Shown: piece after piece, positions 16,151-41,826 of the stretch
Position numbering within the stretch: position 1 is the first letter of the stretch
Layout: every line of letters starts with the position of its first letter
Assembly (NCBI GenBank): GCA_003173895.1
Contig: PJMG01000002.1
Location: 26,974 to 90,973 of the forward strand
From: Candidatus Levyibacteriota bacterium
GTDB taxonomy: Bacteria; Patescibacteriota; Microgenomatia; Levybacterales; UBA12049
Length of the DNA stretch: 64,000 nt
Direction: 5' to 3'
Made by a program: the position numbers and the translations under genes
The notes under the pieces: model-generated
The model's database searches: none
The model's input: the letters and a program-made list of their open reading frames with translations, nothing else
What the model was told of the DNA's origin: nothing

Positions 16151-16911
16151 TAGTAGAAACCATAAAAAAACTTATTAGTTCATTTTTTATTGAAACAACC
16201 GTCGTTATACCAGAGACTAATATGCTCCAAAAAAAAGTTGTTATTATCACTGGAGCAAGTGGCGGTGTTGGCAGAGCTGTGGGATTAACATTACTAAAAG
16301 AAAAGGCAATTGTGATTGCTGCTGGACGCAATATGCAGAGATTACAAAAAATATATAGTAAAAATAATGGTCACGTATTTCTTTTTTGTGCTGATGTAAC
16401 CAAAGAAAAAGATGTTAAAGAATTAGTACGCACAGTAATTAAAAAATACGGCAGAATTGATGCGCTGATTAACTGTGCAGGAGTATTTTTAGAAAAATCG
16501 ATAGAAAATACAACAGAAAAAGAATTCAGCAATATTGTAAATGTTAATATGAAAGGATTATTTTTGATGACGCGTGAAGTAGTACCATATATGAAGAAAA
16601 GAAACCAAGGGTTAATTATAAATATAGGTTCAAAAATCAGTCATAACTCTGGTGTTGCTCCTAAAAAAACGCTTTATGCAATGACCAAGTACGCTGTTGA
16701 AGGATTAAGTATTGCGTTATCGAATGAACTTCATAAATGGGGTATTAAAGTAACCTGTCTTATGCCGGGAACAATTAATACGTTTGTTTCTTTTAAATCG
16801 AAAAAATATCTTTCACCTTACTCTGTAGGTTATATTATTCTTATGATGCTACAACTTGAACAGGTTACATTTGAAAGTATCATTTTTAAATCAAAAAAAC
16901 AATATATATGA
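16147..16911 (+). CDS. Short-chain dehydrogenase/reductase (SDR)
   Basis: TGASGGVGRA matches TGxxxGxG. YAMTK matches YxxxK. The start overlaps the upstream stop as ATGA; an internal Met at 16222 is an alternative start. Confidence 0.8.
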   Translation: MIVETIKKLISSFFIETTVVIPETNMLQKKVVIITGASGGVGRAVGLTLLKEKAIVIAAGRNMQRLQKIYSKNNGHVFLFCADVTKEKDVKELVRTVIKKYGRIDALINCAGVFLEKSIENTTEKEFSNIVNVNMKGLFLMTREVVPYMKKRNQGLIINIGSKISHNSGVAPKKTLYAMTKYAVEGLSIALSNELHKWGIKVTCLMPGTINTFVSFKSKKYLSPYSVGYIILMMLQLEQVTFESIIFKSKKQYI

Positions 16912-18713: not shown

Positions 18714-18715
18714 AT

Positions 18716-20341: not shown

Positions 20342-20342
20342 G

Positions 20343-21614
20343 ATGAAAAAATATGCCCTTACAATTTCTGCATCTATTCTCTTAATGTTTTTTATTTTTA
20401 CATTAGTTTCACATAGTGTAAAATCTAATGTAACTAATAAAACTTTTTGGCCGATTCAATCAATAGATACTATGAAATATTCTAGAGATGATTCTGCTGA
20501 TTCTTCTATTTATCAAAAAATACCAATAATTGTAAGTGAAGTGGCAAACCTTCATGCGAATTATATTTCGATAGATACTCCTTATGATGATCAATTTTAT
20601 CCTGTCCTTAAAGCATGGGTAGATGAAGCCAGACAAGAACATTTAAAAATCTGGTTTAGAGGAAATTTTTCTGCTTGGGAAGGATGGTTCGGATATCAAA
20701 AGTTTAGTAATCCAAATGAAGATCACGCTTTAGTTCATGACTTTATTATTAAACATCCAGATCTTTTTCAAAATGGAGATATTTTTACTTCTGTCCCTGA
20801 GGCAGAAAATGGTGTAATAGGTGATCCACGCGGTTCTGATGAAAAAACTCAACAGTTTAATCAATTTTTAATAACTTCATATAATAACTGTGTTAGTAGT
20901 TTTGAAATTATTCATAAGCAAGTTTCATGTGGTTACTTTAGTGTAAACGGCGATGTAGCAAAAGAGGTTTTAACACCAGAGACAATTAAGCAAATTGGTA
21001 ATGTAGTAGTTATAGACCACTATGTAGATAGTTCTGCTCAAATGGATGTGGATTTGCATTTTTTAACTAATAAATTCCCTAATGCAGAAATAATTCTGGG
21101 GGAATTTGGTGCACCTATTCCGGATATTAATGGAGACATGAATGAAACTCAGCAAGCAGAATTTTTAAATCAATTACTTAATGTTTTTTATGAAAATAAA
21201 AATGTAATTGGTGGAATTAATTATTGGGTAGGTTCAGGTGGATCAACCGCTCTTTATAGAGATGATAATACTGAGAAACCAGCGGTTAAAATAATGCAAA
21301 AGTATTACGACCCTTCAGTAGTAAGTGGAATCGTAACTAATACTGATGGTACTCCATTATCTAATATCTCTATATACGGTATAAATAATTTGCTCTTAGC
21401 CACTACTGATTCCAATGGTAATTATAGTTTTCCGGCTTTTTCAGATTCTCCTATGGAGTTAAGTATTAGTGATCCACATTATCAAAAAATTGATCAGATT
21501 ATTGTACCTAAAAATAGGCAAATGACATACAATATTATACTCTCTCCTAAGAAAACTAATATTATTTATAAAATACGTCTCTTTATAAATAGTTTATTTA
21601 ATTTGTCAAAATAG
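20343..21614 (+). CDS. Secreted protein with a putative clan GH-A-like hydrolase domain and a C-terminal carboxypeptidase-regulatory-like beta-sandwich
   Basis: An N-terminal signal/anchor is present. IILGEFGAP is a candidate nucleophile motif. The C-terminal segment SGIVTNTDGTPLSNISIYG...TTDSNGNYSF resembles CarboxypepD_reg. Confidence 0.35.
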   Translation: MKKYALTISASILLMFFIFTLVSHSVKSNVTNKTFWPIQSIDTMKYSRDDSADSSIYQKIPIIVSEVANLHANYISIDTPYDDQFYPVLKAWVDEARQEHLKIWFRGNFSAWEGWFGYQKFSNPNEDHALVHDFIIKHPDLFQNGDIFTSVPEAENGVIGDPRGSDEKTQQFNQFLITSYNNCVSSFEIIHKQVSCGYFSVNGDVAKEVLTPETIKQIGNVVVIDHYVDSSAQMDVDLHFLTNKFPNAEIILGEFGAPIPDINGDMNETQQAEFLNQLLNVFYENKNVIGGINYWVGSGGSTALYRDDNTEKPAVKIMQKYYDPSVVSGIVTNTDGTPLSNISIYGINNLLLATTDSNGNYSFPAFSDSPMELSISDPHYQKIDQIIVPKNRQMTYNIILSPKKTNIIYKIRLFINSLFNLSK

Positions 21615-21619
21615 ACTGT

Positions 21620-23152
21620 ATGTTTTTAAAAATTAAAAATAATTTTGGTCTAATTTTATTAATTTTCTTTATTAGTTTTATTTATTTTCTTACATTAAGA
21701 GGAGTTAATGGAAATTTATACCCTAATGGAAAAGGTAATGAAAAAATTATATCAAACACTCCTCCTTTTGAGACATCCCTAGAAAGAGGCAGATATGCTC
21801 AAACTATAGCAATTGCTGAGAATCATACATTCATTCTAGATAAATTTAGAAATTTTATAAAACCTGATTTAGCCTGGTATAATGGTCATTATTTTTCTCC
21901 ATTCCCTCCTGGAGTTTCAGTTTTAGCTACACCCTTTTATTTAATTGGTAAGAAGACGCAGTTAAATCAACTTTTTACTTTTTCTACTTCTGCAATTTTC
22001 TCTATTCTTACGGGCATTATACTTATTTTTATTGGTAAAAAAATTAATTTTTCTAATAGATCTATTGCTCTCATGCTTTTAGTTTATTTAGTAGCATCCA
22101 ACGGTTGGGCATATGGAGTAACTTTTTCTGCTCATCCTATTTCTGCTTTTATTATTTCCACTTTTTTTTTACTAGGTCTTAATATTAAACCTGGTAAGAA
22201 TAATATTTTAAATTTTATTTTACTAGGCTTTCTTTATGGATTAAATTTTTATATTGATTATCCTAACCTTTTTATTTTAATTCCCTTATTAATTTGGGCC
22301 GTGTTTAAAAGCTTTTCTAGTCATAATGAGAAGGAAAATTATGAAATTTCTATACCTTCCAGTTTATTATTTATAATTTTGTCATTTTTGGTTTCTCTTA
22401 TACCCTTTTTTATATTTAATTTTCATTATTATCATAAATGGATTGCTCTCACTAATAGTTATAATCTAAAAGCATTGGAAGAAAGAGGAGTAACTTTTTC
22501 TTATAACCATCTTTCTAATAGCCTATTTAATAAAAAATCATATTCTACCAGATTTGATTTTATGAGTATCCCACGTGGAATTTTTACGCTAATTTTTAGT
22601 AGTGATCGAGGATTATTATTTTTCTTTCCTATTTATATCTTTGGATTTTTAGGATTTATAATGGGGCTCTTTAAGAAAAATAAATTTATAATTCCTCTTT
22701 TTCTCACTTTTTTATTTGATTTGCTTTTATATGGTTCGTTTAATGATCCTTGGGGAGGATGGGCTTTTGGACCTAGATATTTAATCCCAGTTTTACCACT
22801 TTTCGCTATATTTATAGGCTTAGCATTTGAATACTTAGAAAAGAGAACAATTTTTAAAATTATTTTTAGTTTCTTATTTATATTTAGTTCTATAGTTGCT
22901 TTAGCAGGCGCACTTACTACTAATGCTGTACCTCCTATTATAGAAAATATTCCAAATACTCCTACTAATTTCATGCTTAATTTTCAATTTTTAATGAATA
23001 ATATGACGAGCTCTTTTTTCTATAATACATTTCTTAGACATATTTTATCTCCTTTCTCTTATTACTTAGCTCTATTATCAGTGACTATTTTAGTGATTCT
23101 ATTTATAATCTGGCTCCCATTATTACATATTGCAAAAAATACGAAAATGTGA
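21620..23152 (+). CDS. GT-C fold membrane glycosyltransferase (PMT/ArnT-like), paralog B
   Basis: Shares NDPWGGWAFGPRYLIP and N-terminal loop similarity with the ORF at 16908. Confidence 0.5.
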   Translation: MFLKIKNNFGLILLIFFISFIYFLTLRGVNGNLYPNGKGNEKIISNTPPFETSLERGRYAQTIAIAENHTFILDKFRNFIKPDLAWYNGHYFSPFPPGVSVLATPFYLIGKKTQLNQLFTFSTSAIFSILTGIILIFIGKKINFSNRSIALMLLVYLVASNGWAYGVTFSAHPISAFIISTFFLLGLNIKPGKNNILNFILLGFLYGLNFYIDYPNLFILIPLLIWAVFKSFSSHNEKENYEISIPSSLLFIILSFLVSLIPFFIFNFHYYHKWIALTNSYNLKALEERGVTFSYNHLSNSLFNKKSYSTRFDFMSIPRGIFTLIFSSDRGLLFFFPIYIFGFLGFIMGLFKKNKFIIPLFLTFLFDLLLYGSFNDPWGGWAFGPRYLIPVLPLFAIFIGLAFEYLEKRTIFKIIFSFLFIFSSIVALAGALTTNAVPPIIENIPNTPTNFMLNFQFLMNNMTSSFFYNTFLRHILSPFSYYLALLSVTILVILFIIWLPLLHIAKNTKM

Positions 23153-27459: not shown

Positions 27460-28818
27460 ATGACTATTGATCCTAAAATTTTTAAAGCTTATGATATCAG
27501 AGCTGTTTATCCTACAGACTTAGATGAAGAAAAAACTTATGCTATAGTTCAAGCATATATAAAGTTATTTAAACCAAAAAAAGTAGTTTTAGGTAAAGAC
27601 GTTCGAGAATCGGGACCTTCACTTTTTGATGCAGCACTTCGTGCCTTTCTAGAGGCAGGCGTCAATGTTATTGATATTGGAACTGTTTCTACCGATGAAT
27701 ATTATTTCGCTGTCGGTTCTATAGATTGTGATGGTGGCATTACCATTTCTGCTTCTCATAACCCTCGGGAATATAATGGATTAAATTTTTGTCTAAGAGA
27801 TGCTGTCCCTTTATCTTCAGAGAATGGTCTTTTAGAAATCCGAGATTTAGTTCTTAAAGATACTACTCCTCTAGTATCTCAAACCAAAGGCACCGTAGAA
27901 AAGCAGGATATAACGGAAGCTTTTCTAAAAAAAGCTATTAGTTTTATAGACCCAACTAAACTTAAACCAATGAAAATTGTAGCTAATGGAAATTTTGGTG
28001 TAGACGTAATGCTATTAAAAAAAGCAATTGAAATGTTTAATTTACCTTTAACTATATTTCCAATTAATGAAAATCCTGATGGGACATTTCCTAAAGGTCC
28101 ACCTAATCCGTTACTTCCTGAAAATAGAACTGAAACATTAGAAATGATTAGAAAAACAGGTGCAGATTTAGCTGTTTCATGGGATGCTGATGGAGATAGA
28201 TGTTTTTTCGCCGATGAAACTGCTAATTTTATAGAAGGTTATTTCATCACAGCAGTTATAGCTCAGGAATTACTTCAAAAATATCCAGGAAGTAAAATAA
28301 TAATAGACCCAAGACTTACTTGGGCTACAACAGAAGCTATTACTAAAAACGGTGGAATCCCTATAGTTTGTAAACCTGGTATGACTATTATTGCGGCTCG
28401 TATGAAATCTGAAGATGCTTTGTTTGGTGGTGAAATGTCATCTCACTTTTATTTTAGAGATAATTATTATCGTGATAATGGTATTATTCCACTTCTTTTA
28501 ATTTTAGAAATTTTATCAGAAAAAAATACTACACTTTCTCAAATAGTAGCTCCATTTATTAACAAATATTTTATAACTGGCGAATTAAATTTCGAAACAG
28601 AGAAAAAAGATGAAATTATCGAAGCAACTAAAGAAAAATATTCTGATGGGAAACAAGAATTTATAGATGGACTTTCTGTAGAATATTCTGATTGGAGATT
28701 TAATTTAAGAAAATCTAATACAGAACCACTTCTTCGTTTAAACTTAGAAGCTTTATCTAAAGATAAAATGGAAGAAAAAAGAGACGAAATAGTTAACTTC
28801 ATAAAGTCTTTTAATTAA
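27460..28818 (+). CDS. Phosphomannomutase/phosphoglucomutase (alpha-D-phosphohexomutase)
   Basis: Active-site serine loop ISASHNPREYNG. Metal-binding loop DADGDRCF. Confidence 0.85.
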   Translation: MTIDPKIFKAYDIRAVYPTDLDEEKTYAIVQAYIKLFKPKKVVLGKDVRESGPSLFDAALRAFLEAGVNVIDIGTVSTDEYYFAVGSIDCDGGITISASHNPREYNGLNFCLRDAVPLSSENGLLEIRDLVLKDTTPLVSQTKGTVEKQDITEAFLKKAISFIDPTKLKPMKIVANGNFGVDVMLLKKAIEMFNLPLTIFPINENPDGTFPKGPPNPLLPENRTETLEMIRKTGADLAVSWDADGDRCFFADETANFIEGYFITAVIAQELLQKYPGSKIIIDPRLTWATTEAITKNGGIPIVCKPGMTIIAARMKSEDALFGGEMSSHFYFRDNYYRDNGIIPLLLILEILSEKNTTLSQIVAPFINKYFITGELNFETEKKDEIIEATKEKYSDGKQEFIDGLSVEYSDWRFNLRKSNTEPLLRLNLEALSKDKMEEKRDEIVNFIKSFN

Positions 28819-28819
28819 T

Positions 28820-29695
28820 ATGCACCAAATTTCTTGGGAAGATTCTATTTGGTTTTTCGATATTGATGACACCCTTATTACTACTACGACATCTGAGATT
28901 ACTCTTTTAGGTTCAAATGCTGTAAAAGATATGTTACTCAAACAATTTTCTGAGAAAGATGCAGAAAAATTAAGAAAAGATTTTGTTAATATTTTTAATA
29001 TTTTACTTGCGGGTCATAGGGGAAATCATACTCCTGAGTATCAGAATTTAATAAATAAAATTGATGCATATCAAGTGGATATAAAAAATGAATTTGGGGC
29101 TACTAAAAGATGGAGTCGAGAAATATTTCTAAAAATAGCTGCTGATAAAAATAATTTACAGATTCCTTCTGATTTATTAAATAAAACAATTAATTATTAT
29201 TGGAAATCTATTTCTGAAAATGCGGTAGTATTACCTCATGTAAAAGAGTTTATGGATTTATTAATTAAACATAATAAAAGAATTTATTTAGTTACAGGTA
29301 GTGATGCTAGGTTAGTTTTAAAAGATAATAATCAATTTTCTTATAATCCTATTTCTTCTGAGCAATTTAAACAAAGTCGCTTATTGCCCTTAAAAAATAA
29401 AGGTATTCCTTACACTTTTGCCTGTATTGGCGACCCAATCGATAAACCTCACAAAGTTTTATTTCAAAAGGCATTTCAAATGGCGCAGAAAGATTTAGGA
29501 CATAAAATTAATCCAAAGAGTGCCATTATAGTCGGGGATTCTTACTCCGCTGATTTAGCCACACCTCTGGAACAATTAAGCTTTGGCTTAGGAATACTAT
29601 ATAAAAACGGGCTAAAGAAAACAGAAGTTATAAGTGACAATCAAATAAATCTGGGAAACCTATTAGATATTACACAATTTTTAAAAACTCAGTGA
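28820..29695 (+). CDS. HAD-superfamily hydrolase
   Basis: Motif I is FFDIDDTLIT (DxDxT). Motif IV is IVGDSYSADL. Confidence 0.5.
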   Translation: MHQISWEDSIWFFDIDDTLITTTTSEITLLGSNAVKDMLLKQFSEKDAEKLRKDFVNIFNILLAGHRGNHTPEYQNLINKIDAYQVDIKNEFGATKRWSREIFLKIAADKNNLQIPSDLLNKTINYYWKSISENAVVLPHVKEFMDLLIKHNKRIYLVTGSDARLVLKDNNQFSYNPISSEQFKQSRLLPLKNKGIPYTFACIGDPIDKPHKVLFQKAFQMAQKDLGHKINPKSAIIVGDSYSADLATPLEQLSFGLGILYKNGLKKTEVISDNQINLGNLLDITQFLKTQ

Positions 29696-30183: not shown

Positions 30184-30999
30184 ATGAATTATTCACCTGA
30201 AGCAAATTTTTTTAAAACAATTGCTCCTCAAATCATTAATTATGTATCTTCAGAGCTAAAAAATGTCTCGATAGTTAAGCAAAAAAGTGAAAATTTAGGA
30301 GAAATGAATTTTGTTACTCAAATTGATATTGAAGTAGAAAAAATGATAGTTGCTAAAATAAAAAAAGATTTTTCTACAGATCTAATACTCGCTGAAGAAG
30401 AATATACTGATACTAAAATTCCGGAAAAAGGACGAATTTGGGTTATAGATCCTATTTGCGGGACTGGAAATCTAGGTCGACAAATCTTACTTTTTGCTAC
30501 CAATATTGCATTAATTGAAGATAATCAATTAGTTGCAGCATGTGTAGTAGATCACCAGCAAAAAACTTATTATTGGAGCACAAGAGATAACAAAATTTAT
30601 AAAGAAAATGAACTTTATGATACTTCTAAAAAAGCTACTGGCACTATAATTGAAGTTGATTTATTCGCAGCGCAAACCAGATATGATAAGAATCTAAAAA
30701 TAGAATACGCTAATTTTATTAAAGAGCTTTATACTCAAACAGATTATGCTCTAATCACCTATAATTCTTCTTTTGGGTTTACTTATGCAGCTATTGGAAA
30801 AATTGATGGTTATGTTAGTCCAGATCATAATTTATGGGATGTAGCAGCACCTAATTTTCTTATGCTACAGGCAGGTGGAACTCTAACAGATATAAATGGA
30901 AATCCATGGAATTTTAATGCTAGATCAGTAATCGCTGCTAAGGATCCAGAGATTCATAAAAAGTTATTAAAAATATATTTAGAAAGTAAAAAAAATTAG
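30184..30999 (+). CDS. Inositol monophosphatase family protein (IMPase/FBPase-like)
   Basis: WVIDPICGTGNL matches the IMPase W(I/V)DP(I/L)DGT motif. LAEEE is an upstream metal-binding motif. Confidence 0.7.
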   Translation: MNYSPEANFFKTIAPQIINYVSSELKNVSIVKQKSENLGEMNFVTQIDIEVEKMIVAKIKKDFSTDLILAEEEYTDTKIPEKGRIWVIDPICGTGNLGRQILLFATNIALIEDNQLVAACVVDHQQKTYYWSTRDNKIYKENELYDTSKKATGTIIEVDLFAAQTRYDKNLKIEYANFIKELYTQTDYALITYNSSFGFTYAAIGKIDGYVSPDHNLWDVAAPNFLMLQAGGTLTDINGNPWNFNARSVIAAKDPEIHKKLLKIYLESKKN

Positions 31000-31002
31000 C
31001 GC

Positions 31003-31251
31003 TTGCCCATTTTTTTAAATTGTTATAAATTATTAATTACTATGTTAACGAAAAAAAATTTAGAACAAATTAGAAATATCATTTCACAAGAGGTTGAAAC
31101 AAAGCTTAAAAATGAATTAAAACCAATTAAGAAAAAATTAAATAATGTTTCTCAAGATTTATCTTACGTCATAAAATCGTTTGATGAAAGGATTTCACAT
31201 AGTGAAAGAGATATCAACATTATTAAACATCACATAGGAGTAATTCACTAA
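31003..31251 (+). CDS. Small hypothetical protein (82 aa, helical)
   Basis: ORF only. Tight spacing with neighbouring genes. Confidence 0.25.
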   Translation: MPIFLNCYKLLITMLTKKNLEQIRNIISQEVETKLKNELKPIKKKLNNVSQDLSYVIKSFDERISHSERDINIIKHHIGVIH

Positions 31252-31256
31252 AAATC

Positions 31257-32177
31257 ATGAACATACCCGATTTAGATGAAATTGTTTTAGAAACTTTAGA
31301 TTTTTTTAGTAAAAATCCACCACCTTCATTTAATCCTAAAGATTATGATCTTCCCTTTGTAGTAGGTTCAGGTAATGCATATAATACTGGCCTTATTATC
31401 TTTTCTGAGCAAGCAGCTATATTTGCAGATGAAAGCAATTTTAGAACTATTCTTCCTGCATTTGAAAAAGCAGTAACTAACAAACTCATAACTCAAGCCG
31501 TAATTATTTCTGCTTCTGGAGGAAAAGATTCTGTATGGGAAATTGAATTAGCTAAAAAATATGGTTTACAAACTACTCTTATTACTACTAAAGCTGAATC
31601 TCAAGCAGCTAAAATAGCAGATAAAATATTTGCCTTTAAATCAATTGATGAACCTTATACATATAATACTTCCACATATATGGGAATGATTTTAGGCGCT
31701 ACTCATGAAAATATCACTAATATTCAAGGAGCGATAAAATCTCTCAAATTCCCAGAGAATTTTAATGAGTATAAAAGTTATTCATTTGTATTACCAGATA
31801 AATTTTCAGCTATTTGTCCCATGCTAGATATTAAACGTCATGAATTATTCGGACCACAGGTATCTTTACGTGCCTTCCCTGAAGGACATGCCAGACATGC
31901 CAAATTCGTAATTAGAACTAAAAACGAATTAGTAATCTCAATTAATGAAAAGAATGAATTTTTTGGTGATCCAGAAAGTCGTTGGAATATTAGCTTAGAT
32001 CAAAATGTTAACTTCGCTATGATAATGGCAGTTACTTACTATATAGTAGGTAAAATACAAAAATCTAAACCACCTTATTTTAAAGAAAATATAGGTAATT
32101 ACGTTTCTGATTATGGACCTAAAGCTTACGGGCCTACCACTGCTCCATTTGATTTAATCGTTCCAGGATCTAAGTAA
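31257..32177 (+). CDS. SIS-domain sugar-phosphate isomerase-like protein. It may be a bifunctional PGI/PMI-type enzyme.
   Basis: FVVGSGNAYNTG and AVIISASGGKDSVWEIELAKKYGLQTTLITT resemble the SIS fold. The length of about 300 aa fits. Confidence 0.45.
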   Translation: MNIPDLDEIVLETLDFFSKNPPPSFNPKDYDLPFVVGSGNAYNTGLIIFSEQAAIFADESNFRTILPAFEKAVTNKLITQAVIISASGGKDSVWEIELAKKYGLQTTLITTKAESQAAKIADKIFAFKSIDEPYTYNTSTYMGMILGATHENITNIQGAIKSLKFPENFNEYKSYSFVLPDKFSAICPMLDIKRHELFGPQVSLRAFPEGHARHAKFVIRTKNELVISINEKNEFFGDPESRWNISLDQNVNFAMIMAVTYYIVGKIQKSKPPYFKENIGNYVSDYGPKAYGPTTAPFDLIVPGSK

Positions 32178-32234: not shown

Positions 32235-34064
32235 ATGGATGATTTTATACTCACATTTAATCACATTTCCAATATTGATAAGAACTATTTAGGAAAAGAA
32301 ATTATAGAACAATCTACATTAGAACATGAAGGAATTATTATCAGTCCATCTATTATTTTAACTAACTCTGCACTTCTCTATTTTTTAAAGCAACAAAATA
32401 TTTTAGAGACACTAAATAATGAAAAAAATATTAAAAAAATAAAAACCATTTTTCATGATGCTAAATTTCCTGAAAATTTAGCCAAAAGAATTTTGGCACA
32501 TTATCATAAATTAGCAGGAGCTATAAAGGAATCTGAACTTAAACTTACTCCTTTTATTATTTATGGAGATCATGAAAAAGAATTAAATTCCACAGTAACT
32601 AAAGGAGAAGCTAATTTAGTTTTAGAAATTAAAGAAGTTTGGAGAGAATTTTTAGAAAATAATTATGTTACATTTGAAAATAATTTTACAGATAATAGAC
32701 CTAAAATTGTTATATTAATACAGAAAAAACCTAAGTTGGATTTAAAAGGTGAAATTTATACATCTAAATTCTTTAGGAACAGAAAAGTTATTGAAATAAT
32801 ATTAACTATTAAAGGTAAAAATAAAAAAATCATTCTTGATAAGCAAAATGAAGAAATAATAGAAGGAGAACAACTTAAAATATATAAGAAATATTTAAAT
32901 CAAATTTTTAATACTGCTAATAAAATAGATAAGCTTTTATATTTACCTAAAAAATGTGACTTTTATATTGAAAAGAATAAATTATTTATTACTCAGATTC
33001 TAGATGATTCTAGCTTTAGTAAAACAGTCGTAGAATCTGAAAAAGAAGATAGATTAATTTTAAGTGGTGAAAATATAAAACCAGGTTTGGTAAGTGGGAA
33101 AGCAGTTGTTTTTAATCATAAAATAAATCAAGCTAAAAATATTTTAATTTTAGATTTTTTTGGTCGCGAGGATTTAAAATACTTTAAAAACGCACTGGGT
33201 TTAGTTTTAACTAAAAAAGAAAATATTAGTTTACTTGAGAATTTACAGTTACCAATCATTTTTAGTAAAGAAGCAAAAAATAAAATAAAAAATGAAGATT
33301 TAATTACTATAAATGGGACTACTGGTGAAATTTTTAAAGGTGGATATATTCATCCTAAAATAATTGCTACAAATAATTATAAAACTGCAACTAAAATTTT
33401 AGTTAATTTAAATGATGAAAATATTAGTGATCTTATAAGGAATTTTTCAGATGGGATTTTTTATGAATCTACTTTTCAACCAGTTTCTCATTTTGAAAAT
33501 TTATCAAATAATGTTAATAAAAAAATTATTTATAGTCTTATTTCTGATGATACAAATTTAGAAAAAGAGTTAAAGATAATAAAATTATTAAGAAATAAAA
33601 ACAGATTAAATAATATTTCCATCTCTATATCTAACGCAAATACTATTGATGAAATTATAAATAATAAAAAAATAATTGCAGCAAATGGACTTTATAGAAG
33701 TCATACATTTGAAGAATTTTTAAAAATAAAAACTATTTCCGAATGCGAATCTTTTACAGAAATTTTAAATTTAAACTTTGATGGAATAATTTTTGATTTA
33801 AAAACTTTAACAAATTATTATTTTGGTGAAGACTTAGAAATATTAAAAGATAATCCTGAATTTGAAAATTTTATTTTAGAAACTATAAAACACTTTTCCA
33901 AAGATAATTTAAAACTTTTTATAGACTTAACAAAAGTAAGTATTTCTCATTATTTTTTAAATAAACTTATAACTATTGGCTTAACTGGATTTTTAGTTAA
34001 TAAGAGTGACTTTATAGATAAAAAAACTAAAATAAGAACTATAGAAAAGAAATTACTAGAATAA
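32235..34064 (+). CDS. PEP-utilising enzyme / pyruvate-phosphate dikinase-like protein. It appears to lack the phospho-His.
   Basis: N-terminal NYLGKE...GIIISPSIILTNSA resembles PPDK_N. INGTTGEIFKGG resembles the PEP-utilisers mobile domain. The expected GGRTSHAAI box instead reads GREDLKYFKNAL. Confidence 0.4.
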   Translation: MDDFILTFNHISNIDKNYLGKEIIEQSTLEHEGIIISPSIILTNSALLYFLKQQNILETLNNEKNIKKIKTIFHDAKFPENLAKRILAHYHKLAGAIKESELKLTPFIIYGDHEKELNSTVTKGEANLVLEIKEVWREFLENNYVTFENNFTDNRPKIVILIQKKPKLDLKGEIYTSKFFRNRKVIEIILTIKGKNKKIILDKQNEEIIEGEQLKIYKKYLNQIFNTANKIDKLLYLPKKCDFYIEKNKLFITQILDDSSFSKTVVESEKEDRLILSGENIKPGLVSGKAVVFNHKINQAKNILILDFFGREDLKYFKNALGLVLTKKENISLLENLQLPIIFSKEAKNKIKNEDLITINGTTGEIFKGGYIHPKIIATNNYKTATKILVNLNDENISDLIRNFSDGIFYESTFQPVSHFENLSNNVNKKIIYSLISDDTNLEKELKIIKLLRNKNRLNNISISISNANTIDEIINNKKIIAANGLYRSHTFEEFLKIKTISECESFTEILNLNFDGIIFDLKTLTNYYFGEDLEILKDNPEFENFILETIKHFSKDNLKLFIDLTKVSISHYFLNKLITIGLTGFLVNKSDFIDKKTKIRTIEKKLLE

Positions 34065-34075
34065 TTTAAAGAATT

Positions 34076-35329
34076 ATGGCAAAAATTAAAAATATACAAG
34101 CTAGAGAAATTCTGGCTGCAGATACTAAACCTACTATAGAAGTTTTCGTAGAGTTAAATGACGGAACTATTGCTAAATCATCTTGCCCTATAGGCTATAA
34201 AGCAGGCGAATATGAATCTTTTTCTATGTTTGAAAGAGATGATAATGGAGAAATCTTAAGTGTTAAAAAAGTAATTGAAAATATTACTAATATTATCGCT
34301 CCCAAATTAATAGGCCAAGAAGCTTCTAAACAACAGCAAATTGATCACATGCTTATAGAATTGGATGGTACTCAAAATAAAATTAAGCTTGGGGCAAATG
34401 CTATGCTAGCTACTTCTCAAGCTATAGCTAAAGCCAGCGCTAAAGTAGCTAAATTACCTTTATTTTTATATTTAAGAGAATTTATATCTAAAAATCCTCA
34501 GATTAGAATTCCAACGACTATTTTTTCTGCTATCGCGGGTAGTAAAAAAGTAAATTCTAACATAGATTTTGAGGAAATTTTAGTTTTACCTACTAGCAGT
34601 TCTTCTTTAGAAAATTCTATTAAATTATATAAAAAAATTAATCAAAAAATTTTAGATTATCTAAAATCAAAAAATGAAAAATTTCTCATTTCGCCTAGAG
34701 GAGCTTATTCTCCTAATGCACAAACCAATGAAGAAAGTTTATCTATTTTAAAAGAAATTATTTCAGATTGTGGATATCAATTAGGTTTTGATTTATTTTT
34801 GGGTGTAGATGCTGCAGCGGATAATTTTTATGAAGCTAAAAAATATAAATTGGCTGATAGAGAATCTTCATTAGATGCTAAAAGTTTAATCTCCTTTTAT
34901 GAAAGTTTGGTAACTGATTATCATATTCTTTATTTAGAAGATCCTATTTATGAACAGGACTTAGAGAGCTGGCAAAATCTAACTAATTCTATTTCTAGAA
35001 GCACAATAGTAGTTTCTGATCGCATGACGGCTACAAATTTATATCGTCTTCAAATGGCTTTAGACAAAAAATCTATCACAGGTATGTCTATAAAACCCAT
35101 TCAAACTGGTACTGTTATAGAAGCTTTAGCGACAGCCGAAGTGGCTAAAGCAGCGGGTATTAAAATCGTAGTTTCTTCTAGAACTTTTGAAACTGATGAT
35201 GATTTTATAGCAGACTTCGCAGTAGCAGTAGGTGCAGATTATATAAAATTTGGAGCTCCCACCCGTGGGGAACATATAGCTAAATATAATAGGCTTTCTA
35301 AAATTGAAGAACAAATTAAGATGCTATAA
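34076..35329 (+). CDS. Enolase-family protein (divergent enolase homolog)
   Basis: Clear enolase blocks are present: MLIELDGTQNKIKLGANAMLA, LGVDAAADNFY, ILYLEDP, SIKPIQTGTV, TDDDFIADFAV and IKFGAPTRGEHIAKYNRLSKIEE. Several catalytic positions appear substituted, as detailed in the findings. Confidence 0.6.
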   Translation: MAKIKNIQAREILAADTKPTIEVFVELNDGTIAKSSCPIGYKAGEYESFSMFERDDNGEILSVKKVIENITNIIAPKLIGQEASKQQQIDHMLIELDGTQNKIKLGANAMLATSQAIAKASAKVAKLPLFLYLREFISKNPQIRIPTTIFSAIAGSKKVNSNIDFEEILVLPTSSSSLENSIKLYKKINQKILDYLKSKNEKFLISPRGAYSPNAQTNEESLSILKEIISDCGYQLGFDLFLGVDAAADNFYEAKKYKLADRESSLDAKSLISFYESLVTDYHILYLEDPIYEQDLESWQNLTNSISRSTIVVSDRMTATNLYRLQMALDKKSITGMSIKPIQTGTVIEALATAEVAKAAGIKIVVSSRTFETDDDFIADFAVAVGADYIKFGAPTRGEHIAKYNRLSKIEEQIKML

Positions 35330-35432
35330 GATTTTATAATTTTAATTCTTACTACAAGAAATTTAATCCCACAAAGCAAATTTATTTCATGTTGTCCTTT
35401 ACAGAACAATCCTATAATGTTATAATTGTCTC

Positions 35433-36716
35433 ATGCCAGAAGTCACTAGAAGAAAACTCATAACAGGAACTGCTCTTTCTATTATAGCAGCAGAAACAGG
35501 CGTTATTTTAGGACAAAATCTAGAAAGTAATGCAAATTTTATCTTACCTCGTGAAACTATTGAGACTAACTTTAAAGATGGTTTGGAGCCTTGGTTAGAC
35601 ACATTTAATAGTGTCTCTACTCTAAGACGAAAATTAGGTGCTACTCCATCCTACTTTTACTTACGAAACGGTTCAAATATTTATAATGGAGAAGCATTAT
35701 TAGCAAAGATTGCTAGAGGAATTGCATCTACTCAGGAAAAAAATCTTTTGGCAGATGGATGGTTTAAAGAAGATATTATTAAGGTTAAAAAGGGAGATAT
35801 AATGGTCGAAACAGATAATTATGACCCTTTACTGGATAATATACGTGAACAACAGATTGAAAGAGTTCGGAACACAATTCAAATTATAATACCACCTGAA
35901 ACTAAAAACCCAATAGAGTATGAAAAGCAAATCAGAGATGCTTTAGCAGATTTTGCTTATATTGCTCCACAAATGATAGAAATGCTACCTAATACCATTA
36001 AAATTAGAAATGATATGGGAGGTTTAACTTACTATGATCAGGAATTAGTAGAACTTCCTTCATTTGAGAATAAAGAAGATTTCTGGGTAGCTCTTATTCA
36101 TGAAGCTAGACACCGAATAGAGTTTGTTTTATTAGAACATAAAAATATACTAGTAAAAGAACGTGTGGCTCAATATTTTAATACTAAATTACATGCTATC
36201 GACAGAATAGCAGAAACTTATTTACGGGCTACATGGTCAGCAGCAGAATGGTTTAAATTTGGATTTAATGATTTTATTCCTTATGACTCAAATATAGTTA
36301 ATAGTAGATATATATCAAACTTAGAAAATTACTTTAAACAAAAATATAATATTAAGTTACTTCCTAAGTATGATGGTGAAAGCGATGGAAATAGATATAA
36401 TCAATTAATTCATGCTGTAGGACAATTAGCTCTTAAAAAACCTGAAATTTTAGCAGATGATAAAATTACTAGTTTAATGCAAGTATTAGTAGACGAAATT
36501 TTCCACTTCTTAGTAGGCCCTGTACAAGGATCCAAATCTATTGGATTACCTTCTGATAAGAATCCTATCTCGAATCCTATGCATCCATATAACACTGCTA
36601 ATTTAGAAACTCAGTGGGAAGCATGGAATACATTTGGAGGAATTGATCTAGGAGGATTAGATGATGATTTCTTTAGTTTGATAAGGAGACTTCTTAAACT
36701 GGATCCTTGGTCATAA
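35433..36716 (+). CDS. Putative Tat-secreted HExxH metallopeptidase-like protein
   Basis: N-terminal MPEVTRRKLITGTALSIIAAETG has a twin-arginine motif plus a hydrophobic region. An internal ALIHEARHRIEF segment carries HExxH. Confidence 0.4.
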   Translation: MPEVTRRKLITGTALSIIAAETGVILGQNLESNANFILPRETIETNFKDGLEPWLDTFNSVSTLRRKLGATPSYFYLRNGSNIYNGEALLAKIARGIASTQEKNLLADGWFKEDIIKVKKGDIMVETDNYDPLLDNIREQQIERVRNTIQIIIPPETKNPIEYEKQIRDALADFAYIAPQMIEMLPNTIKIRNDMGGLTYYDQELVELPSFENKEDFWVALIHEARHRIEFVLLEHKNILVKERVAQYFNTKLHAIDRIAETYLRATWSAAEWFKFGFNDFIPYDSNIVNSRYISNLENYFKQKYNIKLLPKYDGESDGNRYNQLIHAVGQLALKKPEILADDKITSLMQVLVDEIFHFLVGPVQGSKSIGLPSDKNPISNPMHPYNTANLETQWEAWNTFGGIDLGGLDDDFFSLIRRLLKLDPWS

Positions 36717-36733: not shown

Positions 36734-37492
36734 TTAATTATTAAATAAAATTACAAACTCTCCTTTTGGTTTTTTATTTTTATAAGCAATTAACAACTCA
36801 GATATTTTTTCTTTCTTTACTTCTTCATAAACTTTAGTTAATTCACGAGCTATAACAATCTCAATATCTCCAAATATTTCCAGTAATGCTTCCAGGTTAC
36901 CAATAATTTTATAAGGCGAGGCAAAAAATATATTTGTAGTTTTTATTAATTTTTCAGATTCTTTTATATTTTCTAGCAGTTTTAATGCATGCGATTTTTT
37001 CTCTGGTAAAAATCCATAAAAAGAAAATTTATCAGTTGGCAATCCAGACACTGAGAGTGCTGAGATTACAGAAGATGGACCTGGAACGCTAACTACTTTT
37101 ATATTATTTATTAAACATTCTCGAACTAATTTAAATCCGGGATCAGAAATAAGAGGAGTACCTGCATCGGAAACTAAAGCCACATTTTTATCATTTAAAA
37201 GTAAATTTAACATCTCTGGAATTTTTCGCATTTCTACTTCATCATAAAAAGAAATCAAAGTAGGATTACTATCTGAAACGTTTTCGTCATTGCGAGCTTC
37301 GCCAGAGGCGGGCGTGGCAATCTTTTTTTTCAAATCAAACAACCAATTTTTTCTGATGTAATCTAATAGTAATCCTGTTTTTCTAGTATCTTCACAAGCA
37401 ATAACATTCACTGAAAATAAAGTTTGGACTGCTCTTAAAGTTAAATCACCCATATTGCCGATAGGAGTTGAAACAATATATAATATTCCCAT
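36734..37492 (-). CDS. rsmI: 16S rRNA (cytidine1402-2'-O)-methyltransferase RsmI
   Basis: GILYIVSTPIGNMGDLTLRAVQTL...CEDTRKTGLLL. A low-complexity insertion of about 25 aa (KKKIATPASGEARNDENVSDSNPT) is present. Confidence 0.75.
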   Translation of the reverse strand: MGILYIVSTPIGNMGDLTLRAVQTLFSVNVIACEDTRKTGLLLDYIRKNWLFDLKKKIATPASGEARNDENVSDSNPTLISFYDEVEMRKIPEMLNLLLNDKNVALVSDAGTPLISDPGFKLVRECLINNIKVVSVPGPSSVISALSVSGLPTDKFSFYGFLPEKKSHALKLLENIKESEKLIKTTNIFFASPYKIIGNLEALLEIFGDIEIVIARELTKVYEEVKKEKISELLIAYKNKKPKGEFVILFNN

Positions 37493-37493
37493 A

Positions 37494-38102
37494 ATGAACT
37501 TTATTATACAGTTTATTTCTCATTTCGGATACTTTGCCGTATTTATTTTCATGACTATGGAATCTGCATTGATTCCTATTCCTTCAGAAGTTACACTTCC
37601 CTTCGCTGGTTTTTTAGCTCAAAATGGTCATCTTAATTTATTTGTAGTTATGATTGTGGCTATTTTAGGCGATTTAGTAGGAACTTCTATTCTTTATGCT
37701 ATAGGAGTTTTTTTAGAAGAAGAAGTAATTATTAGACTTATAGATAAATATGGCAAATTTATTTTAATATCCAAACATGAATATACGAAACTCATGGAAT
37801 GGATTAATAAACGGGGATCAATCATAATTACAGTCGGAAAACTTTTACCTGGATTTAGGAGTATCATTGGTTTACCAGCTGGCCTTTCAGAAGTATCTTA
37901 TGTTAAAACTTTAATTTTTACACTTATAGGTTCTGTTATTTGGTGTGTATCTTTCGTATTATTAGGTCTTATTTTAGGTAAAAACTGGGAAATTTTAGAT
38001 CCAATATTTAAAAAATTTGAATTAGTAATAATCTTAGCAGTAGTTTTAGCAGCACTCTGGTATATCAACCACAAATTAAAAATAATAAAGTTTAAAAAAT
38101 AA
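37494..38102 (+). CDS. DedA/SNARE-associated family membrane protein. The track ORF begins at 37455; ATG 37494 is preferred.
   Basis: YFAVFIFMTMESALIPIPSEV matches the DedA motif. There are 4-5 TM helices. Confidence 0.6.
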   Translation: MNFIIQFISHFGYFAVFIFMTMESALIPIPSEVTLPFAGFLAQNGHLNLFVVMIVAILGDLVGTSILYAIGVFLEEEVIIRLIDKYGKFILISKHEYTKLMEWINKRGSIIITVGKLLPGFRSIIGLPAGLSEVSYVKTLIFTLIGSVIWCVSFVLLGLILGKNWEILDPIFKKFELVIILAVVLAALWYINHKLKIIKFKK

Positions 38103-39135: not shown

Positions 39136-39765
39136 TTAAGTAAATTTCCTTATTACCGCCACGCATTTACCTTGAATAGTCAGTTGGGTTGGATAAATGG
39201 GGCGCATTTCAGAATTAGCAGGACGAAGCACTACTCGATCATTTTCTTTATAATATTTTTTAAGAGTAGCGAGATTATCATCTACTATCGCTACTATTAT
39301 ATCTCCCATTTTAATCTCACGTTCTTTCTCAATAACCACATAATCGCCATCTAAAATTCCATCCTCTATCAATGAATCACCTTTTACCTGTAAAACATAT
39401 GCTGCATATTTACTAGAGAGCAGAGACGCTGAAACTGAAAAAGTCGCATAAGGATCACTATGAGGCTCTAATGGTTTTCCTGCTGCTATAAAACCCATTA
39501 GTGGCAGTTCCACAGAGGGACCTACACGGCTCATTTTATATGAAACAGTAGGATCGATAATTTTAAGAACACGACTGTTCCCTTCTACTTTTTGAACATA
39601 ACCTTTATCTACTAGTGTTTTTATAATTTGATGGATAGTAGAAACTGCTCTATGACCTGTTGCATTCGCAATCTCAGTTAAGGTAGGTGAATAACCATAT
39701 CTATTTTGATATTGGATTAAAAATTCGAGTACTTCTCTTTCTCGTCTATATAGAACTCCAGCCAT
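39136..39765 (-). CDS. lexA: LexA repressor (S24 peptidase). The start is taken at MAGVLYRRE, and the 40-aa upstream extension of the track ORF is rejected.
   Basis: wHTH segment SPTLTEIANATGHRAVSTIHQIIKTLVDKGYV. Ala-Gly cleavage site in GFIAAGKPLE. Catalytic segment VKGDSLIEDG with Ser, and a downstream Lys. Confidence 0.85.
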   Translation of the reverse strand: MAGVLYRREREVLEFLIQYQNRYGYSPTLTEIANATGHRAVSTIHQIIKTLVDKGYVQKVEGNSRVLKIIDPTVSYKMSRVGPSVELPLMGFIAAGKPLEPHSDPYATFSVSASLLSSKYAAYVLQVKGDSLIEDGILDGDYVVIEKEREIKMGDIIVAIVDDNLATLKKYYKENDRVVLRPANSEMRPIYPTQLTIQGKCVAVIRKFT

Positions 39766-39774
39766 ACTAAATTT

Positions 39775-39791
39775 TATACGAAATTCGTATA
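39775..39791. promoter_or_regulatory. Candidate LexA operator. This is a 17-bp perfect palindrome, TATACGAA-A-TTCGTATA, in the lexA-uvrB divergent intergenic region.
   Basis: Read directly from the sequence. It lies between a minus-strand -35 (TTGACA, reverse complement of 39796-39801) and a -10 (TATAAA, reverse complement of 39772-39777). It is 20 bp upstream of the uvrB extended -10, TGGTACAAT, at 39812-39820. Confidence 0.4.
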
Positions 39792-39834
39792 TTTTTGTCA
39801 ATAGGACAATGTGGTACAATCTAATATATAATCT

Positions 39835-41826
39835 ATGAAATTTAAAGTTGTTTCTAATTTTAACCCTAGTGGTGATCAACCTCAAGCCATAAAACAGTTA
39901 AGCACCAACATTAAAAATAATGCTAAACATCAAGTGCTTTTAGGTGTTACAGGCAGTGGGAAAACCTTTACCATGTCTAAAATTATAGAAGAAGTTCAAA
40001 AACCAACTTTAGTAATAGCACATAATAAAACTTTGGCTGGACAACTTTATCAAGAATTTCGCGAGTTTTTTCCTCATAACGCAGTATCATATTTTGTTTC
40101 TTATTATGACTATTATCAACCGGAAGCTTATGTTCCCCAATCAGATACTTATATCGAAAAAGAATCTGAAATTAATGAAGAGATCGATAAACTTAGACTG
40201 GCTGCCACTGCGAATTTACTAACTAGGAAAGACGTTATCGTAGTAGCTTCTGTCTCCTGTATTTATTCTCTGGGCTCACCAGTTGAATATGGAAAGTTTG
40301 TTTTGGAAATAAAAGCTGGCATGAAAATAAATCAAAAAGATATTTTAATCCGACTCACTGATCTTCAATATGACAGAAATGATTTTGGTTTTCATAGAGG
40401 TTCATTTAGAGTCAGAGGAGAAGATATAGAACTGCTTCCAGCATATATGGATACAGGTCTTAGAATAATTATTAAAGAAAATTTTTTAAGGAAAATAGAA
40501 GAATTTGATCCTTTGACTGGAGATACTATTTCAAATATTGATGCAACAATAGTCTACCCCGCTAAACATTATATGACTGATCCGAAAACTTATGAAAATG
40601 TTTTTAAAGAAATTAGAACAGATTTAGGTAAACAAATCGAAATATTTAAAAAACAAAATAAATTACTTGAAGCTCAGAGAATCCAGCAAAGAACTAATTT
40701 TGATTTACAAATGATTCAGGAAGTAGGCTACGTAAATGGAATTGAAAATTATTCCAGATATTTTGAAGGTAGAAATCCTGGAAGTGCTCCTTATACACTC
40801 CTGGATTATATGAAAGCTTGCTCTGAAGATTGGCTTTTATTCGTGGATGAATCTCACATGAGTTTACCTCAGGTCCGTGGAATGTATAATGGCGATCGAG
40901 CGCGAAAAGAAGTCTTAATAGACTATGGATTTAGACTACCTAGCGCTTTAGATAATAGACCGCTTAAGTTTGAAGAATTTATGTCTCGAGTTAATCAAGC
41001 TGTGTATGTAAGCGCTACTCCATCAGATTTTGAAATGTCACTAGCTACTGAAACACCTAATGGGGTGGCAGAACAATTAATAAGACCTACTGGCATAGTC
41101 GATCCTATAGTCGAAGTTAGACCAACTAAAGGCCAAATTCCAGATTTAATGCAGGAGATTTTAAAACGAATTGAGAAACATGAGCGCGTTCTAGTTACTA
41201 CTTTAACCAAAAGAATGTCGGAGGAATTAACTTTTTACCTTCAAGAACGAAATATTAAAGTTCTTTATCTTCATTCAGATATAGAGACTTTAGAACGCCA
41301 GGAAATATTAGACAAACTTCGCCGCGGAGATGTAGATGTAGTTGTAGGAATTAATTTACTTCGAGAGGGTTTAGACTTACCAGAAGTTACTTTAGTGGCA
41401 ATTTTAGACGCGGATAAAGAGGGCTTTTTAAGAAGTAAAACCTCGCTGATTCAAACTATGGGCCGCGCTGCTCGAAATATAAACTCCAGAGTTATTCTTT
41501 ATGCAGATAAACAAACAGACTCTATGAAATTTGCTATTTCTGAGGTAGAAAGACGACGAAAAATCCAATTAGAATATAATAAAAAACATCACATTACTCC
41601 TAAAAATATCCAGAAATCTATAAGAGAAAGATTAGTGGAATATGAAGAAGACATTCCTGCTGAAGATGTAGTTTTTAAAGATTTAGAGAATAAAGAAATT
41701 TTACTTCCTGATGATAAAAAGAAAATGAAAAAGCTTCTTAAAGAACGAATGACTCAAGCAGCGAAAAATCTCGACTTCGAATCCGCAGCAATGTTAAGGG
41801 ATAAGATAAAAAGTTTAGATAAATAA
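39835..41826 (+). CDS. uvrB: Excinuclease ABC subunit B (UvrB)
   Basis: Walker A is GVTGSGKTFT. There are helicase motifs, a beta-hairpin region and a C-terminal UVR domain. Similarity is full length. Confidence 0.95.
   Translation: MKFKVVSNFNPSGDQPQAIKQLSTNIKNNAKHQVLLGVTGSGKTFTMSKIIEEVQKPTLVIAHNKTLAGQLYQEFREFFPHNAVSYFVSYYDYYQPEAYVPQSDTYIEKESEINEEIDKLRLAATANLLTRKDVIVVASVSCIYSLGSPVEYGKFVLEIKAGMKINQKDILIRLTDLQYDRNDFGFHRGSFRVRGEDIELLPAYMDTGLRIIIKENFLRKIEEFDPLTGDTISNIDATIVYPAKHYMTDPKTYENVFKEIRTDLGKQIEIFKKQNKLLEAQRIQQRTNFDLQMIQEVGYVNGIENYSRYFEGRNPGSAPYTLLDYMKACSEDWLLFVDESHMSLPQVRGMYNGDRARKEVLIDYGFRLPSALDNRPLKFEEFMSRVNQAVYVSATPSDFEMSLATETPNGVAEQLIRPTGIVDPIVEVRPTKGQIPDLMQEILKRIEKHERVLVTTLTKRMSEELTFYLQERNIKVLYLHSDIETLERQEILDKLRRGDVDVVVGINLLREGLDLPEVTLVAILDADKEGFLRSKTSLIQTMGRAARNINSRVILYADKQTDSMKFAISEVERRRKIQLEYNKKHHITPKNIQKSIRERLVEYEEDIPAEDVVFKDLENKEILLPDDKKKMKKLLKERMTQAAKNLDFESAAMLRDKIKSLDK

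Follow-up and report, generated by a model that had tools for sequence, protein, structure and literature searches.

A phosphoenolpyruvate synthase homolog lacking the residues of all three active-site regions, maintained beside a degenerate enolase in a Candidatus Levyibacteriota bacterium

A 64,000-nucleotide stretch of the genome of a Candidatus Levyibacteriota bacterium (assembly GCA_003173895.1, contig PJMG01000002.1, positions 26,974 to 90,973; the whole stretch is here called the window) carries a gene for a 609-residue protein that is a true three-domain homolog of phosphoenolpyruvate (PEP) synthase, PpsA. The residues characteristic of all three PpsA active-site regions have been lost from this protein, and the gene lies directly upstream of an enolase homolog that has also lost catalytic residues; both open reading frames (ORFs) stay open in three lineages. 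The explanation that we favor, with moderate confidence, is that the protein is a catalytically dead PpsA kept for a noncatalytic role, most plausibly in partnership with the dead enolase, whose gene is probably co-transcribed. The PpsA-like ORF was confirmed exactly at 32235..34064, with an ATG start, and its product is about 150 residues shorter than canonical PpsA. Its parts, in window coordinates, are as follows.

32235..34064, + strand: ORF of the PpsA-like pseudoenzyme, positional ortholog of ppsA (hhalign, Foldseek, and synteny with loci L086 and L052)
32235..33014, + strand: N-terminal ATP-grasp-like domain, residues 1 to 260, with a degenerate nucleotide site (alignments; Foldseek to 5hv6)
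33054..33347, + strand: central swivel (formerly phosphohistidine) domain, residues 274 to 371 (hhalign, AlphaFold model)
33162..33173, + strand: G310-R-E-D, counterpart of the PpsA T-N-P-D motif (phmmer, MAFFT, hhalign)
33210..33236, + strand: T326-K-K-E-N-I-S-L-L334, counterpart of D-x-G-G-x-T-S-H-A-A-I-V (hhalign, MAFFT, phmmer against 8a8e)
33228-33230, + strand: Ser332, occupant of the phospho-His column (hhalign)
33381..34061, + strand: C-terminal TIM-barrel domain, residues 383 to 609, from the PEP/pyruvate-binding domain (alignments; Foldseek to 8a8e)

None of the three Pfam gathering thresholds is reached by the protein: PPDK_N (PF01326) scores 18.6 bits against a cutoff of 27, PEP-utilizers (PF00391) scores 11.1 against 23.1, and PEP-utilizers_C (PF02896) has no match in the Pfam search. 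The NCBIfam PEP synthase model NF005057 matches with an E value of 3.3e-11 and 42 bits, against an equivalog cutoff of 598, and a second PEP synthase equivalog (TIGR01418) gives 38.9 bits against 739.75; the match to the PPDK model TIGR01828 is even weaker (E = 0.09), and there are weak NCBIfam matches to PigC and RedH. Because the Pfam matches are sub-threshold, they neither confirm nor refute homology by themselves, and profile-profile and fold comparisons are needed. When the protein and two close homologs are aligned by hhalign with a profile of seven genuine PpsA sequences, the probability is 99.9% and the E value 1.1e-36, over 596 aligned columns that cover all three domains. An AlphaFold2 model built from a 46-sequence alignment has a mean predicted local distance difference test score (pLDDT) of 87, with low confidence only in the interdomain linkers (residues 261 to 271 and 372 to 380). 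The top Protein Data Bank match of this predicted model in Foldseek is the Neisseria PEP synthase 2OLS (E = 1.3e-23), followed by PPDKs at about 1e-21, the ATP-grasp domain of rifampin phosphotransferase (5hv6; E = 8e-13), and the C-terminal domain of PpsA (8a8e; TMt 0.65, root mean square deviation 3.5 Å). The order of ATP-grasp, swivel, and TIM-barrel domains in PpsA is thus found both by hhalign and in the predicted fold. A preliminary description of this DNA had pointed to PPDK_N-like and PEP-utilizers-like segments, and that kinship is real, though it lies below the curated thresholds. PADLOC and PHROGs gave no match for either the PpsA-like protein or the enolase.

The same description placed the segment G310-R-E-D-L-K-Y-F-K-N-A-L opposite the G-G-R-T-S-H-A-A-I motif of PEP synthase, PPDK, and enzyme I, and reported the catalytic phospho-His as apparently missing. 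The register was wrong by about 15 residues, as all three alignment methods place GRED against T-N-P-D, and the segment corresponds to the upstream T-N-P-D-x-V-P-A-M-K-x-A. GG(R/K)TSHAAIV instead corresponds to K327-K-E-N-I-S332-L-L, with a deletion of three or four residues, and the His column is occupied by Ser332 (hhalign), by Leu333 (MAFFT), or by a gap (phmmer against 8a8e); this placement combines the three sequence-based alignments with a predicted helix beginning at residue 331. The absence of the His itself is confirmed, and no G-G-x-T-S-H-A-A-I motif is present. A full residue listing puts the His residues at positions 10, 31, 74, 89, 91, 113, 295, 373, 419, 490, 553, and 572, with none anywhere in residues 296 to 372, the core of the swivel domain; in the AlphaFold model His295 lies in a loop and His373 in a low-confidence, disordered linker. 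We likewise ruled out a catalytic His hidden at some other point of the swivel domain, as none exists there.

We read 21 diagnostic residues column by column against genuine PpsA (P0004, L052, and L086), assigning their roles from the established enzymology of PPDK, PpsA, and enzyme I. Two of the 21 are kept, Gln163 and Gln254. In the ATP-grasp domain the Lys of GGKGANL is replaced by Glu22, the whole RSSATAEDLPDASFAGQ segment (RSS..ED) is absent, with its Arg aligned to Thr105 or a gap, the Mg-ligand Glu (EWA) is Asp242, and the Arg of VQxRP is Leu256; the nucleotide and Mg site of PpsA is not retained. Nor is the PEP/pyruvate site: deletions have taken out the NPxLGxRG loop and the arginines of LLRxEF and YRxxD, the Glu of vEvP is Lys499, the Asn-Asp of GSNDLT is Lys523-Thr524, and the Cys of CGQ/E is Asp564. 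Each of the three dikinase partial reactions would therefore be without its key side chains, which argues against a re-purposed ATP-grasp protein, one of two possibilities raised in the preliminary description. The other, a pseudoenzyme, is supported more strongly than was proposed, with all three active-site regions lost instead of one, and the protein fits the usual meaning of that term, a clear homolog of an enzyme family without residues essential to that family's catalysis.

The downstream gene, which starts 11 nucleotides beyond the PpsA-like gene, has degenerated in a similar manner.

34076..35329, + strand: enolase homolog, 417 residues (matches to TIGR01060 and 1IYX)

It is full length by sequence (E = 1.7e-74 to 1IYX) and passes the TIGR01060 equivalog cutoff, with 339.7 bits against 300. 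The catalytic set known from enolase enzymology, in yeast numbering, is Ser39, His159, Glu168, Glu211, Asp246, Glu295, Asp320, Lys345, His373, and Lys396, with Glu211 as the acid catalyst. The full set is not present here: six of the ten are kept (Glu167, the Mg ligands Asp245, Glu288, and Asp315, and Lys340 and Lys391), and four are substituted, Ser39 by Lys42, His159 by Lys158, Glu211 by Arg208 (34697-34699), and His373 by Ser368. The earlier characterization of this enolase as equally atypical is thereby borne out. The enolases of loci L001 and L002 share these losses with other replacements (Asn or Lys for Glu211, Ser or Ala for His373), and among the 120 nearest enolases, 99 have the canonical residue at each of the 15 positions checked. 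Other degenerate enolases occur beside a PpsA remnant (L087), an empty slot (L088), and a truncated PpsA-like gene (L083). The PpsA-like and enolase genes are probably co-transcribed. No terminator-like site lies on the + strand between them, neither has a clear Shine-Dalgarno sequence upstream, and a promoter scan of the region was not above shuffled sequences (48 versus 40.6 ± 6.8), so that the grounds for an operon are the 11-nucleotide spacing and the absence of a terminator.

The pair sits in a conserved gene cluster, holA–PGM/PMM–(PGI or cupin, etc.)–ppsA–eno–(His-phosphatase)–rsmI–DedA–LexA–uvrB ... CTP synthase, whose other members in the window include the following.

27460..28818, + strand: phosphoglucomutase/phosphomannomutase (PGM/PMM), upstream anchor of the cluster (Pfam; present in L001, L003, L052, L083, L084, L086, and L088)
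36734..37492, - strand: rsmI-type TP_methylase, downstream anchor of the cluster (synteny)
37455-38102: DedA, between rsmI and uvrB
39136-39885, - strand: LexA, between DedA and uvrB
39835..41826, + strand: uvrB, anchor for recovering syntenic loci in other genomes (synteny)

The window has a GC content of about 30%, and the nearest named relatives of the enolase are Candidatus Levybacteria/Levyibacteriota and other Microgenomates-group Patescibacteria. In a Levybacteria-type locus (L086), collinear with the window, the same slot holds a 755-residue PpsA that is canonical at 21 of 21 residues, followed by a canonical enolase, and a Saccharibacteria metagenome-assembled genome (L052) is likewise collinear with a canonical ppsA-eno pair. 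The window protein is 23% identical to the L086 PpsA, whereas the flanking orthologs are 50% (enolase), 48% (rsmI), 49% (DedA), 58% (LexA), and 68% (UvrB) identical. Among 16 window genes compared, the PpsA-like gene has the lowest GC content (21.3%, with 10% at third codon positions) and its product the highest FYMINK (Phe, Tyr, Met, Ile, Asn, and Lys) fraction (46%); its GARP (Gly, Ala, Arg, and Pro) fraction of 10% is as low only in holA. The L086 PpsA, in contrast, matches its own genome background in composition. By gene neighborhood, then, the window gene is the positional ortholog of ppsA after strong lineage-specific acceleration; the alternative to acceleration in place would be an in situ replacement of ppsA by a distant homolog. 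An assembly artifact is ruled out, as three independent assemblies share the architecture.

A UvrB-anchored genome scan supplied the syntenic loci L003 and L052 but found no close relative; its best UvrB match was 63%, with CPR (candidate phyla radiation) and non-CPR phyla all at 54 to 59%. A family-profile scan of the GTDB species genomes found nothing. We note that L003 (CAZVGS010000001.1) is labeled as an uncultured Gammaproteobacteria bacterium yet its gene cluster is of the CPR type and collinear with that of the window (63% identity for UvrB, 71% for the SIS-like protein, and 57% for LexA), and the taxonomic label is probably wrong. The contents of the ppsA slot differ among the loci as follows.

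L086 and L052: canonical PpsA
L084 (P0008): full length, 732 residues, without the His
L085 (P0013; GCA_038063415.1): 643 residues, with no adjoining enolase
Window, L001, and L002: 572 to 609 residues, all sites dead
L003 and L083: 392 and 355 residues, ATP-grasp and swivel only, no C-terminal domain and no clear His
L087: 178-residue PPDK_N remnant
L088: empty, PGI abutting enolase

The L087 remnant (732-1268) corresponds to the N-terminal part of PpsA only and is 39% identical to the N terminus of Levybacteria PpsA, so the portion of PpsA that persists longest across these lineages is its N-terminal subdomain; the ORF ends exactly where an enolase with Glu211 replaced by Arg begins.

The window protein is no one-off, but an extreme member of a large and heterogeneous cloud. 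An exhaustive hidden Markov model (HMM) search with the family profile recovered 656 cluster representatives at E ≤ 1e-3, with scores falling from 1039 and 907 bits for the two close homologs to 192 bits for the next match; a word-indexed profile search yielded few further sequences. Residues were checked in 148 representatives (150 listed minus the two close homologs), a sample biased toward degenerate proteins because the query profile is itself degenerate. Within it, all 21 diagnostic residues are kept in 2 of 148 and the 11 core residues in 4 of 148; a His is present in the His column in 47 of 127 alignable proteins, the four ATP-site residues are kept in 10 of 130, and the six PEP-site residues in 6 of 119, with a median agreement with the canonical set of 6 of 21. 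These proteins (P0008-P0155) have lost catalytic residues in a mosaic fashion and fall into at least 140 clusters at 50% identity, and the genomic contexts sampled (L083, L084, and L085) share the PGM-ppsA-eno-rsmI-DedA-LexA-uvrB synteny.

Several observations indicate that the PpsA-like gene is under selection and is not a decaying pseudogene. Its own frame contains one stop codon, at the end, while the other five frames contain 27 to 105, and the chance of 609 stop-free codons at the composition of the gene is about 1e-29. Two other genomes carry full-length open orthologs, one with 49% identity and 69% positives and the other with 41% and 60%, a divergence only slightly above that of DedA at the same loci (52% and 51% identity). 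Because synonymous sites are saturated at 41 to 49% identity, we simulated the accumulation of stop codons instead of calculating the ratio of nonsynonymous to synonymous substitution rates (dN/dS). Neutral drift to those identities, using the gene's own base composition, produced means of 31 and 38 stops (range 20 to 54), and none of 400 replicates remained open. The open frames in three lineages, the simulation, and the confidently predicted fold together argue for purifying selection, and thus for a pseudoenzyme and not a pseudogene.

We propose that, in this AT-rich, tiny-genome, Levybacteria-related lineage of Microgenomates-group CPR bacteria, the last steps of glycolysis would have lost their catalytic role. 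The PpsA ortholog would then have lost its ATP-binding, phosphate-carrying (His), and PEP/pyruvate-binding residues and become about 150 residues shorter through the loss of active-site loops, with its three-domain fold retained, and the downstream enolase would have lost its acid catalyst and substrate-clamping residues. Purifying selection would have kept both proteins as open, foldable ORFs, with the PpsA-like protein acting in a structural, binding, or regulatory capacity, most plausibly with the dead enolase. Of this, the analysis shows the homology, the fold, the lost residues, the positional orthology, the accelerated divergence, and the maintained ORFs; that catalysis is wholly absent, that the two genes are co-transcribed, that their products work together, and what the noncatalytic role is are inferences. 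A broader idea, which we offer tentatively and consider possible but doubtful, is that the PpsA-enolase pair of Microgenomates-group CPR bacteria has a second, nonmetabolic function, as a scaffold, a regulator, or a complex that interacts with a host, and that this function persists after catalysis is gone. If so, it would explain why well over 100 clusters at 50% identity with mosaic catalytic loss persist at one conserved locus, and why in this clade both dead partners are conserved together as a co-transcribed module of two pseudoenzymes.

There are several points that weigh against a noncatalytic PpsA working with a dead enolase. The degeneration of the two genes is not strictly coupled, but loose: in L084 and L003 the enolase is largely canonical although the PpsA-like gene is degenerate, and at L085 no enolase adjoins the PpsA-like gene. 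The first two loci suggest that PpsA degenerates before enolase, and the loose coupling agrees with the report by Jaffe et al. (2020; PMC7304191) that enolase and pyruvate kinase are patchily distributed across the CPR. In P0003, one of the two close homologs, the hhalign His column does hold a His (KKE-NSH---LIKELQKP), implying that the family ancestor may have kept the His for longer; its loss in the window lineage may therefore postdate the other losses. A canonical enolase, pyruvate kinase, or PPDK may exist outside the 64-kb window. Finally, the former active face of the swivel domain (FFGRED and TKKEN) is conserved best, which might instead reflect a newly evolved site for binding or catalysis.

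This last point leads to a neofunctionalized protein, with a new catalytic activity or a new small-molecule or protein ligand, unrelated to PEP synthesis, served by newly fixed residues around the swivel face, the TIM barrel, or both, possibly together with the enolase-like protein. The swivel is the best-conserved domain among the three family members (62% and 57% identity, versus 46% and 41% for the N-terminal and 51% and 41% for the C-terminal domain), and it contains the invariant blocks ILILDFFGRED, TKKEN, and TINGTTGEIFKGGYI, of which the first two are charged and lie at the former phospho-His environment. Lys499 and Asp564 are likewise invariant at former catalytic positions of the C-terminal domain, the enolase-like protein keeps its metal site (Asp245, Glu288, and Asp315) together with Lys340 and Lys391, and there are precedents for new activities in rifampin phosphotransferase, the PigC/HapC type, and VadK. 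However, in all the characterized repurposed dikinases that we checked, both the ATP-grasp site and the catalytic His are kept, and the window protein has neither. Invariance among only three sequences has little power, and at several former catalytic positions the replacements differ among the three members (Ser, Ser, and His in the His column; Asp, Asn, and Asp for the Mg-ligand Glu; Arg, Asn, and Lys for enolase Glu211); the wider cloud shows a mosaic of substitutions that share no alternative motif. We therefore regard a new activity of this kind as unlikely.

We give still less credence to a functionless relic in reductive decay that has simply not yet been interrupted or deleted. Such decay has clearly occurred at this locus, which shows every stage down to the 178-residue remnant and full deletion in relatives; the PpsA-like gene is the fastest-evolving of the cluster and the most AT- and FYMINK-shifted, and losses of enolase and of the PEP-pyruvate step are scattered across the CPR (PMC7304191). 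Yet three lineages at 41 to 49% identity keep full-length frames where drift introduces at least 20 stops in every one of the 400 simulations, 60 to 69% of positions remain BLOSUM-positive between orthologs, and the sequence still supports a confidently predicted three-domain fold. A still-functional, divergent PEP synthase or PPDK using noncanonical residues, such as a phospho-Ser332 or a distant His, would account for the retained three-domain architecture and the position beside enolase, but it is hardly credible given a swivel core without His and flanking His residues in a loop and a linker, the joint loss of ATP- and PEP-site residues with deletion of the RSS..ED, LLRxEF, and NPxLGxRG loops, scores more than tenfold below the equivalog cutoffs, and a product/substrate partner, enolase, that is itself without its acid catalyst.

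Reductive evolution is expected in the CPR; less expected are an apparently dead three-domain dikinase under selection, its pairing with an apparently dead enolase that still passes its annotation threshold, and a series of stages across the locus. As none of the catalytic sites of PpsA is retained and no curated PpsA threshold is reached, the protein should not be filed as a PEP synthase. Nearby enolase relatives are deposited as "phosphopyruvate hydratase" and many PpsA-like relatives still carry Pfam dikinase domains; with the enolase passing the equivalog cutoff, HMM-based surveys could count a working PEP-pyruvate end, and CPR presence/absence surveys could infer lower glycolysis where the catalytic residues say that there is none. 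The locus captures enzyme loss in one place, from intact PpsA through a dead full-length protein, a truncated one, and a remnant to an empty slot, and it offers a clean natural system for asking why a three-domain "molecular machine" is kept once catalysis is gone.

The neighboring genes have features of their own. Between PGM/PMM and the PpsA-like gene are a HAD hydrolase (28820-29695), an inositol-monophosphatase (IMPase)-family gene (30184-30999), and an 82-residue ORF (31003-31251), none of which is at that place in L001; the Levybacteria locus L088 has an IMPase gene too. The gene immediately upstream of the PpsA-like one encodes a 306-residue protein (31257-32177) with sub-threshold SIS-domain matches only; it is 71% identical to its L003 ortholog, far better conserved than its neighbors, and occupies the position of bact-PGI_C in Levybacteria relatives. 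We considered whether it is the PGI of those relatives and rejected this, as it has no BLAST similarity to their PGIs. Between enolase and rsmI is a 427-residue ORF (35433-36716), absent from L001 and L002, with an N-terminal TRRKLITGTALSIIAA segment (a twin-arginine-like signal) and a HEARH (HExxH) motif; it has no Pfam, NCBIfam, PADLOC, or PHROGs match and is a candidate secreted metallopeptidase. Just upstream of it, at 35398-35426, is the best promoter-like site in the region (11 of 12 matches, with TG). The LexA ORF (249 residues, TTG start) overlaps the start of uvrB by 51 nucleotides, and as alignments to relatives of 209 to 217 residues begin at residue 41, its real start is probably about 40 codons downstream. 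The DedA ORF (TTG start at 37455) overlaps rsmI by 38 nucleotides, and its matches start at residues 13 to 17. Elsewhere in the window, a single 1564-residue ORF (6775-11469) fuses two GT2-family modules and one GT4/GT1-family glycosyltransferase module within a glycosyltransferase-dense region (197-2496 and 14966-16150). Large ORFs of 601, 541, and 510 residues in 16908-23152 have no Pfam match at E ≤ 1e-5 and adjoin CarboxypepD_reg and fibronectin type III proteins; they may encode cell surface proteins.

Among known systems, PpsA (TIGR01418 and NF005057; 2OLS and 8a8e) is the closest relative, with the same domain order, end-to-end alignability, the best structural match, and the same chromosomal position, from which the window protein differs by its shorter length and by the absence of the phospho-His, the ATP-site Lys, Arg, and Arg, and the PEP-site Arg, Arg, Glu, Asn-Asp, and Cys. 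PPDK (1KBL, 1DIK, and 5JVL) has the same fold and domain logic, and relative to it the catalytic losses are the same and the sequence similarity weaker. The neighboring gene shares with canonical enolase (TIGR01060) the full-length fold and sequence, the three Mg ligands, and the equivalents of Lys345 and Lys396, but has Arg, Ser, Lys, and Lys at the equivalents of Glu211, His373, His159, and Ser39. VadK (Mycobacterium tuberculosis Rv1127c), rifampin phosphotransferase (RPH), and the prodigiosin ligases PigC/RedH/HapC are derived from PPDK/PpsA and no longer make PEP, and the truncated relatives of 355 to 392 residues (L083 and L003) have the ATP-grasp and swivel architecture of VadK. In VadK the catalytic His422 and the ATP-binding Arg106 are still present, and the protein autophosphorylates (PMC13400623); RPH is described as having a swivel domain with a phosphate-carrying His (PMC4844700). 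These repurposed His-swivel dikinases combine a functional ATP-grasp domain and swivel His with a replaced or absent third domain; the window protein, in contrast, lacks the ATP-site residues and the His, and its third domain is still PpsA-C-like. Our literature searches found no PpsA- or PPDK-derived pseudoenzyme without the His and no pseudoenzymes of Patescibacteria. The closest conceptual precedent that we found is in trypanosomes, where flagellar PGK-like and GAPDH-like proteins, glycolytic homologs predicted to be catalytically inactive yet retained as proteins, are taken to be what is left of a glycolytic segment since lost (PMC4106842). That case concerns other enzymes and another domain of life; the one described here from sequence involves two adjacent, probably co-transcribed bacterial genes.

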